A stretch of 63,762 nucleotides of DNA, the filler included, from Coriobacteriales bacterium (GTDB lineage Bacteria > Actinomycetota > Coriobacteriia > Coriobacteriales > UBA8131): the NCBI GenBank assembly GCA_031263105.1. It is 6 parts of 6 records of this genome, joined end to end, with 100 filler letters (N's around TTAATTAATTAA, not from the genome) between each part and the next. Parts side by side here need not be neighbours in the genome. Positions count along the whole stretch, not along the records: positions 1 to 19,586 come from JAISGJ010000047.1; 5 more parts are not named here. The stretch is one strand, 5' to 3'. The notes beneath the pieces are model-generated. The model searched no databases, was not told the DNA's origin, and was given only the letters and a program-made list of their open reading frames with translations. This document shows, piece after piece, positions 10,455 to 10,697 of this stretch. A program made the position numbers and the translations under genes. Position 1 is the first letter of the stretch, and each line of letters begins with the position of its first letter.

Positions 10455-10697
10455 ATGGATTTGATCTTGTCACAGACGATACAGGCAATAGGGGTTATGT
10501 TGGGCCTGGCCTTCCTCGGAGTGGGCATAGGGCTCGGCATCCTGGGCTCGAAGGTCGCCGAGGCGGTAGGGCGCAACCCGGAGACCAAGAGCGACGTCAT
10601 CCAGTCCGTCATGGTGGTCGCCGTGGCGCTGACGGTCCTGCTCCTGCTCCTGTTCGCGTTCGTGTTCATCCTCCTGTTCTTCAACCCGCTGGTCTAG
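10455..10697 (+). CDS. atpE: F-type ATPase subunit c-like protein lacking the membrane carboxylate
   Basis: 80 aa hairpin of two hydrophobic helices, GVGIGLG motif and GRNPE loop; no Asp/Glu after residue 47. Confidence 0.85.

Follow-up and report, generated by a model that had tools for sequence, protein, structure and literature searches.

What could the rotor ring of an ATP synthase do if none of its subunits carried the residue that binds the transported ion? The question is raised by a gene at 10455..10697 on the plus strand of a 63,762-nucleotide stretch of DNA from a Coriobacteriales bacterium (assembly GCA_031263105.1; "the window" below means this whole stretch). The window consists of joined contigs, and only positions 1–19586 (contig C163) bear the gene, which encodes a homolog of ATP synthase subunit c (here called c-like) and is part of a cassette of about 11 genes that also encodes F1-like subunits and very large surface proteins. 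The rotor rings of characterized F-, V-, and A-type ATPases all carry ions. The explanation that we favor, with modest confidence, is that the c-like ring serves as the passive rotor of an ATP-hydrolyzing F1-like motor that works mechanically on surface proteins.

The c-like open reading frame (ORF) is preceded by a purine-rich ribosome-binding stretch (AAGGAG/AAAGGA), and its product matches the subunit c family PF00137 (ATP-synt_C) over residues 11–73 with 33.4 bits (E = 5.3e-8; cut-off 24), so that the view of it as a true subunit c homolog, taken in a preliminary description of the locus, is borne out. It falls below the cut-offs of all 15 NCBIfam subunit c/K models that it matches, the best being NF005363 (38.9 vs. 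71 bits); TIGR01260 gives 30.7 vs. a cut-off of 43.95. The loop between the two helices reads RNPET, with R40 as the loop arginine. In E. coli subunit c the distance from R41 to the ion-binding D61 is 20 residues, and the equivalent c-like position is then Thr60, which lies 20 positions past R40; helix 2 has no Asp or Glu, and none comes after Asp47. The preliminary description had cautioned that the neighboring Val61 codon (GTC) is one base removed from an Asp codon (GAC), and this caution is moot, because the equivalent position is Thr60 and the acid is missing from the whole family.

The extent of that absence is considerable. A search of a collection of 5.8 billion proteins gave 1538 matches at E ≤ 1e-3, and in all of the best 120, which were read by eye and are 75–100% identical to the query, the helix 2 acid is absent. 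It is likewise absent from all 31 usable c-like ORFs among 32 related loci of other genomes, which came from a scan of one genome per species (the 32nd, L044, was left out of the count because its contig ends after c-like residue 41); none of these syntenic homologs retains the carboxylate. A HMMER search of 1.84 billion cluster representatives gave 260 matches, and the best 150 of these were sorted by type into 19 single hairpins without the acid, 35 single hairpins with it, 66 multi-hairpin proteins, and 30 that are truncated or have no recognizable loop. Among these 150 the highest-scoring single hairpins are all acid-free (P0130–P0134 on top), and no intermediates were seen.

What the family does keep is equally uniform. 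In 29 aligned sequences the glycines of the packing motif (G22, G24, G26, G28, and G31) are invariant, as are A35, E36, G39, R40, N41, P42, E43, and K45 of the loop and the C-terminal pair N77-P78, which is expected to lie on the extracellular side. The initial observation that the glycine motif and RNP loop survive and the helix 2 Asp/Glu does not is therefore upheld by the ORF itself and by both sets of homologs. Residue 60 is T, A, M, or L across the family, so there is no conserved substitute ligand at this position, and no conserved polar ligand was found elsewhere in the membrane core of helix 2. The accompanying proposal that ring packing and contact with gamma and epsilon are maintained and ion binding is not is supported as regards the missing helix 2 carboxylate; since the glycine motif and the loop are invariant, its first part is plausible. 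The ratio of nonsynonymous to synonymous substitution rates (dN/dS) against three close orthologs is ∼0.06–0.12, and the gene is under strong purifying selection. Across phyla the c-like proteins are 65–86% identical, compared with 20–45% for the b-delta proteins described below.

That the acid is missing through a sequencing or assembly error, or that the cassette is a decaying duplicate of an ATP synthase operon, is hardly credible. The metagenome bin is fragmented and the cassette is split at a repeat, as such an explanation would have it, but over 10300–11600 the window agrees base for base with a Logan contig of X1, the likely source run, and a 351-nucleotide contig from a second termite gut sample (X2), which spans 10440–10792 and has seven differences from the window, shows its listed differences inside the c-like gene (10500, 10619, 10640, and 10646) exclusively at third codon positions. 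No X2 difference is listed at 10632–10637, the bases for which a check of read support had been suggested. The family-wide absence of the acid, the low dN/dS, and the intact reading frames and catalytic motifs also speak against error or decay. The c-like protein is a conserved subunit c homolog without the ion-binding residue and, as far as sequence data can tell, not a product of sequencing error.

The company that this gene keeps is the next guide to its role. The cassette runs in the order giant, fam3, c-like, b-delta, alpha, gamma, beta, epsilon-like, 6a, 6b, and 6c, and this order is repeated in the 32 related loci as far as their contigs reach, with family counts of 24 to 32 over 33 sources. 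The following features were placed in the window:

1386..8567, plus strand, open reading frame of the giant surface protein "fam7", the first cassette gene (tblastn)
8587..10380, plus strand, surface protein "fam3" of ∼600 amino acids (ORF, found in 29 of 33 sources)
10455..10697, plus strand, c-like subunit, a hairpin of 80 amino acids (ORF, PF00137 match, family alignment)
10727..11512, plus strand, b-delta fusion of 261 amino acids with a TTG start (AlphaFold2 model, Foldseek)
11509..12828, plus strand, alpha-like subunit of 439 amino acids (PF00006, 231 bits)
12831..13622, plus strand, gamma-like subunit of 263 amino acids (PF00231, 64.9 bits)
13619..14974, plus strand, beta-like subunit of 451 amino acids (PF00006, 217.6 bits)
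14984..15412, plus strand, epsilon-like protein of 142 amino acids (gene position)
15413..15795, no strand assigned, copy of a dispersed repeat (blastn)

The genes from c-like to epsilon-like form a tightly packed and partly overlapping operon, in which the b-delta stop codon overlaps the alpha start (ATGA) and the gamma stop overlaps the beta start. In this genome 6a, 6b, and 6c lie on another contig, C3, where tblastn with the proteins of locus L029 places them on the minus strand from ∼13164 down to 5001 (locus L084); C3 ends (∼13200–13600) in the same dispersed repeat that occupies 15413–15795 of the window.

The F1-like subunits are divergent and keep their catalytic motifs. The alpha-like protein reaches 356.6 vs. 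a cut-off of 484.45 on the NCBIfam equivalog model and is below all alpha cut-offs, and its C-terminus is ∼80 residues shorter than that of the canonical alpha subunit of the host; the beta-like protein scores 449.7 vs. 462.85 on TIGR01039, and the gamma-like protein, which passes PF00231 (cut-off 39.9), scores 33.9 vs. 194.45 on TIGR01146. The eight cassette alphas that were checked all have the Walker A/P-loop and the Arg-finger motif (8/8 each), and among 26 cassette betas Walker A is present in 25, Walker B in 23, and the catalytic Glu motif in all. The F1 part of the cassette thus looks, by these motifs, like a competent ATP hydrolase. The position of epsilon is occupied by a small protein in 27 sources; its conserved core of ∼80 amino acids is rich in beta strands, and most orthologs have no regulatory C-terminal helices. 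Pfam and PDB sequence searches gave no match for it, and a language-model atlas gives no more than a lead, with ATP-synt_DE_N clusters second (0.88) and third (0.87) in rank; the tentative epsilon-like assignment derives from gene position and this lead. A few Bacilli/Firmicutes loci have an extra-long alpha-like ORF or a gap between alpha and gamma; the long ORFs (829 amino acids in L024, 676 in L027, and 562 in L022, vs. the usual ∼440) may contain an insertion or a fused extra domain.

Has this organism, then, lost ion transport from its ATP synthase? The preliminary description had spoken of a loss, and on this point it cannot stand, since contig C38 of the same genome carries a canonical F1Fo operon with a subunit a (PF00119, 175.7 bits), alpha and beta genes, and a subunit c in which the helix 2 Glu is present (49.1 bits). 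Given this operon, the c-like gene is a paralog in a separate cassette and, judged on gene content, is part of a second rotary machine and not of the ordinary ATP synthase of the cell. The subunit a on C38 is the only one in the host genome. The cassette itself contains no match to PF00119, in agreement with the reported absence of subunit a from the operon. In two of five other carrier genomes that were checked, G041 (1.7 Mb, locus L027) and G045 (1.5 Mb, locus L034), neither a subunit a nor a second c nor non-cassette alpha and beta genes were found; the cassette would thus have no subunit a to borrow there, and if these results hold, the machine runs without any subunit a and is the only rotary ATPase-like system found in these genomes. 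Both may fall in gut lineages that ProAD lists without rotary ATPases (PMC11738941).

The membrane protein 6a (∼180 amino acids with ∼5 membrane helices; mean predicted local distance difference test score, pLDDT, of 79 for the model) was compared with subunit a, and no significant resemblance was seen. Its sequence has no PDB match below E = 0.3, and its model has no significant Foldseek match (E = 1.5 and a template-modeling score, TM, of 0.33 with the subunit a chain 6n2d_a, not significant); a wide VIA search returned generic four-helix bundles only (Z up to 11.6). Its conserved residues are R67, a mid-helix position within the membrane at which 20 of 21 sequences have K or R, and the acids E132 (20/21) and D109 (18/21). 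These residues, together with the canonical subunit a encoded elsewhere in the host genome, are what could be cited for a cryptic pump or synthase that moves H+ or Na+ through another site or with the borrowed canonical subunit. We consider such a machine highly improbable: the membrane core of helix 2 offers no polar ligand that is conserved, residue 60 is variable, the cassette occurs in G041 and G045 where subunit a was not found, and the characterized F, V, and A rotors all use Glu or Asp (PMC11738941).

The product of the gene after c-like gives no Pfam, NCBIfam, or PDB match in sequence and profile searches, and its family comprises at least 552 members, all unnamed. The AlphaFold2 model (mean pLDDT 88.1) has a membrane helix that runs into a stalk helix (residues 2–78), a disordered linker (83–97), and a globular domain (105–260). 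In a Foldseek search of PDB with this model each of the top 41 matches is either a delta/OSCP chain of an ATP synthase or a mycobacterial b-delta chain (E from 1e-3 to 0.8; best 9o19_W, E = 1.1e-3, probability 1.00), and VIA-align gives Z of 5.5–6.1 with a root-mean-square deviation of 4.3–5.6 Å over 118–127 residues. A weaker structural match is FliH (5b0o_F, Z 5.2). The resemblance is moderate but family-specific, and it suggests that the cassette encodes its own peripheral stalk in the form of a b-delta fusion.

The arrangement that we favor would then be as follows. A second rotary machine would comprise an alpha3beta3 core with gamma, a short form of epsilon, and the b-delta stalk; its genes lie together with that for 6a and with those for three or four surface proteins that cross the membrane once, of which two are very large. 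Its F1 part would burn ATP and so turn gamma and epsilon, which would hold the RNPET loops that are invariant in the c-like subunits. Lacking both the carboxylate and any detectable subunit a, the ring would spin passively in the lipid, as rotor or as bearing, without ion transport, and alpha3beta3 would be kept stationary by the b-delta stalk, probably with 6a. Torque or rocking would pass to the juxtamembrane modules and membrane helices of the surface proteins at the outer face of the ring, where the invariant N77-P78 is expected, and the output would be mechanical work at the cell surface (movement, adhesion, or remodeling) and not a proton gradient. The homology of the parts, the family-wide absence of the acid, the intact catalytic motifs, the gene order, the separate canonical operon, and the purifying selection are observed, and from them we infer that a ring forms and rotates, which way energy flows, and which proteins are the partners.

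Need the ring turn at all? The c-like oligomer might simply hold the F1-like ATPase at the membrane, next to the surface proteins, as a ring without productive turning, and the work might come from gamma rotation or from alpha/beta changes acting on a cytoplasmic or membrane partner, comparable to the internal motor chains of Mycoplasma mobile. With neither subunit a nor carboxylate, rotation of the ring would be unneeded, the b-delta stalk is short and its linker flexible, and mycoplasma type 2 and 3 systems operate without a c-ring (PMC3369863). A static anchor should, however, have no use for an invariant RNPET loop, an invariant glycine motif, or 65–86% identity across phyla; one membrane helix would suffice and is already supplied by b-delta. 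The joint retention of gamma, epsilon, and c points instead to a rotor that has been kept, and we regard the anchor as a serious minority possibility, doubtful as it stands.

The very large surface proteins that always flank the ATPase genes suggest a different use of the machine, as an ATPase for export or assembly that helps giant proteins to be secreted, inserted, or passed across the wall, with the ring as docking platform or conduit in the manner of FliH/FliI/FliJ. The presence of FliH among the weaker structural matches of b-delta fits this, as does the kinship of F1 with the ATPases of type III secretion systems (T3SS), which is well established. The latter relation is the topic of PMC3665681. 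On the other hand, the surface proteins bear ordinary N-terminal signal-anchor helices, family scans of the cassette found no export gate homolog, and the alpha and beta subunits are true heterohexamer F1 types that score far above the FliI/SctN models. The lumens of c-rings in solved structures are, moreover, narrow and lipid-filled. Export is in our estimation quite improbable.

Several points weigh against the passive rotor as well. The likeness of b-delta to delta/OSCP is moderate (Z ∼6, Foldseek E ∼1e-3), and its stalk helix is short (∼78 residues, counting the part in the membrane) and gives way to a disordered linker, which makes the role of a rigid stator questionable; 6a has no specific resemblance to subunit a. 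The host genome (G000) is a draft of 250 contigs, 86% complete and 6.5% contaminated, in which the cassette is split over two contigs at the dispersed repeat, so that its integrity in this organism is presumptive. The negative results for G041 and G045, for which completeness is not given, mean "not found" and not "absent".

No Pfam, NCBIfam, or PADLOC family, and no meaningful one in PHROGs, was found for any of the accessory proteins. The giant protein (∼2260 amino acids from a probable start near 1815, just 5′ of its N-terminal membrane helix) consists of this helix, a conserved juxtamembrane module, a tract of 22 G-X-Y (collagen-like) triplets at ORF residue 412, and a long extracellular part; its N-terminal part is conserved in 22 loci by tblastn. 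The match to Pfam Collagen is weak and below the cut-off (16.9 bits), and PHROGs matches to collagen-like tail fibers are limited to the Gly tract. The single-pass fam3 protein, which matches no Pfam or NCBIfam family, likewise has an N-terminal membrane helix with a juxtamembrane module and a tract of 24 triplets; an atlas search with its N-terminal module gave no usable match. Of the remaining accessory proteins, 6b (∼250 amino acids) and 6c (∼1300 amino acids; 2132 on contig C3) have one helix each. When the N-terminal modules were compared by hhalign, giant and fam3 matched with 98.2% probability (E = 2.7e-14, 165 columns), giant and 6b with 93.1%, and fam3 and 6b with 90.6%. By this profile comparison the helix and juxtamembrane modules of giant and fam3 are homologous, and that of 6b is probably related to them.

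The G-X-Y tracts occupy the same place in 8 of 20 giant and 11 of 25 fam3 proteins, all in one subclade, the other subclade having none. Between loci the tracts vary from 12 to 41 triplets, and within a locus those of giant and fam3 are nearly equal (e.g., 41/41, 39/40, and 22/24), with r = 0.95 over 8 loci that are related and not independent (L014, L018, L020, L025, L026, L029, L044, and window 1386–10380). The matched lengths suggest that giant and fam3 share a collagen-like triple helix. A structural precedent for surface proteins joined to a rotor exists in the Vo part of the eukaryotic V-ATPase, in which helices of ATP6AP1/Ac45 and ATP6AP2/PRR, single-pass proteins with large extracytoplasmic domains, lie inside the c-ring and are part of the rotor (PMC9263379); unlike the machine proposed here, this Vo pumps protons, and the analogy is structural only, with no homology shown to the cassette surface proteins. 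By analogy, giant, fam3, and 6b might each be fixed in or on the ring by their membrane helix and juxtamembrane module, and a joint giant and fam3 triple helix of about the thickness of the wall might pass rotation or twist to a large external fiber for movement, attachment, or surface remodeling. Such an ATP-powered rotary surface motor of walled bacteria, whose carboxylate-free ring turns a collagen-like shaft through the wall, is a speculative picture that we think rather unlikely in this full form.

How did the cassette come to be in this genome? In a tree of 26 cassette, 19 canonical, and 12 mycoplasma type 3 betas, all the cassette sequences fall into a single clade of their own, which has 100% support and whose stem measures 1.01 substitutions per site. 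A free quick tree leaves the relation among cassette, type 3, and canonical betas unresolved; constraining cassette and type 3 together is 23.5 log-likelihood units better and is not rejected (approximately unbiased test, p-AU 0.90), though both stems are long, so that long-branch attraction is possible. The Coriobacteriales copies, including that of the window, nest among Bacillota copies, which points to lateral transfer of the cassette into Coriobacteriales. A b-delta profile has matches in 3 of 24 other genomes of the same family, in none of 16 from other families of the order, and in 4 of 300 sampled Clostridia with the query genome counted; the cassette is widespread but sporadic, and its occurrence in the Bacillota is scattered.

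Among known systems the mycoplasma F1-like X0 ATPases come closest, and the present cassette is apparently undescribed: a full-text search, outside which subscription journals and supplements lay, found no description of it in print. The mycoplasma enzymes power gliding, and the MIB-MIP surface system requires them (10.1101/2024.06.11.597861; 10.64898/2025.12.04.692339); Type 2 is the M. mobile gliding motor (G1-ATPase), and Type 3 is the MSC_0618/0619 family needed for MIB-MIP antibody cleavage. Like the cassette, they provide an extra alpha-, beta-, gamma-, and epsilon-like set encoded apart from the real ATP synthase, are clustered with uncharacterized membrane and large surface proteins, and are thought to spend ATP on a surface function and not on ion transport (PMC3369863; 10.64898/2025.12.04.692339). 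According to the same two sources their clusters have no c homolog and no recognized delta and are without an equivalent in other bacteria. Unlike these clusters, with their 12-helix Protein 1 and no c, the cassette keeps the c-like and b-delta proteins and seems to have other accessory proteins; its membrane proteins have one or ∼5 helices, whereas Type 3 is a seven-gene cluster with the 12-helix Protein 1 and Proteins 2 and 5. The cassette hosts, moreover, are walled Bacillota and Coriobacteriales, unlike mycoplasmas. The cassette subunits stay below the NCBIfam exception models for Type 3 (MSC_0618_beta, 383.4 vs. 570; MSC_0619_alpha, 288.1 vs. 520) and Type 2 (glide_MMOB1670, 381.8 vs. 850; glide_MMOB1660, 376 vs. 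600), and the G1-ATPase beta chain 9io5_A matches with 325.5 bits, under the canonical betas at ∼383.

The cassette and canonical F1Fo have the c loop, the glycine motif, and the catalytic motifs in common, and their homologous c, alpha, gamma, beta, and epsilon genes follow one order. The cassette differs in having no subunit a, no helix 2 carboxylate, and no separate delta, in a short b that is fused to a delta-like domain, in an alpha without the ∼80 C-terminal residues and an epsilon that in most orthologs has no C-terminal helices, and in that all its subunits are below equivalog cut-offs. N-ATPases resemble it as laterally spread second F-type operons with no separate delta and a b with a delta-like segment, but they keep subunit a and an ion-binding c and pump ions, mostly Na+ (10.64898/2026.10.01.756066); the cassette is far below the corresponding alt_F1F0 models (beta, 410.4 vs. 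752; alpha, 333.5 vs. 750.5).

The same kind of Glu/Asp loss has been noted in a "non-catalytic" set of ProAD, with 20 candidate F/N-ATPases and 41 A-ATPases whose c/K subunits lack the carboxylate (PMC11738941), and it occurs in multi-hairpin relatives. Because ProAD recognizes a complex only where subunit a is present, a cassette that has none would not be counted there. Multi-hairpin rotor subunits keep the site in at least one hairpin, whereas here every copy in the ring would be without it. The present searches also met nine multi-hairpin c/K-type proteins of 3–5 hairpins and 240–435 amino acids (P0140, P0149, P0155, P0170, P0174, P0178, P0184, P0185, and P0187) in which the Glu position of some or all parsed hairpins is occupied by Gln or a different residue; P0149, P0174, and P0185 have Glu in no parsed hairpin.

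If the passive rotor is real, it would show that evolution can put the rotor of F1Fo to a purely mechanical use. The F1-like ATPases of mycoplasmas, of which no counterpart outside that group has been described so far, would gain a relative in walled gut bacteria, and one that retains part of its Fo ancestry, which would make the origin and mechanism of the mycoplasma motors testable. Were the collagen-like shaft also correct, the flagellar and gliding motors would be joined by a third type of rotary drive for bacterial appendages, powered by ATP and not by ion flow. There is a practical side as well, in that c-like homologs are routinely annotated "F0F1 ATP synthase subunit C" or "F-type H+-transporting ATPase subunit c", which can suggest an ion-translocating ATP synthase where none was found, as in G041 and G045. 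Experiments are feasible, since the cultured human gut isolates Clostridium sp. OF03-18AA and MCC344 carry the c-like gene.

A scan of 8400–15900 for promoters and terminators gave nothing above the shuffled background, and among the sequencing runs listed as containing the stretch there was none of RNA; PADLOC matched 0 of 9 cassette proteins, and neither it nor PHROGs gave a sign of phage or defense origin for them. The contig joins of the window are runs of N at 19587–19686, 41334–41433, 48421–48520, 54245–54344, and 60919–61018. The dispersed repeat gave 361 blastn matches on 169 of the 250 contigs, often at contig ends, and probably fragments the host assembly; the division of the cassette between C163 and C3 is probably an effect of assembly, in which the contigs were wrongly joined or broken at the repeat, although the genome may also be truly rearranged here. 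The repeat is ∼100–250 bases long with internal inverted copies (e.g., C26:1–154 and C154:41–215), and a further copy is inserted between 6a and 6b on C3. On the 3′ side of the repeat in the window lie an XRE/cupin-like regulator (15793–16380) and an acyl-CoA-synthetase-like gene (16438–18228), both named from their translations alone.

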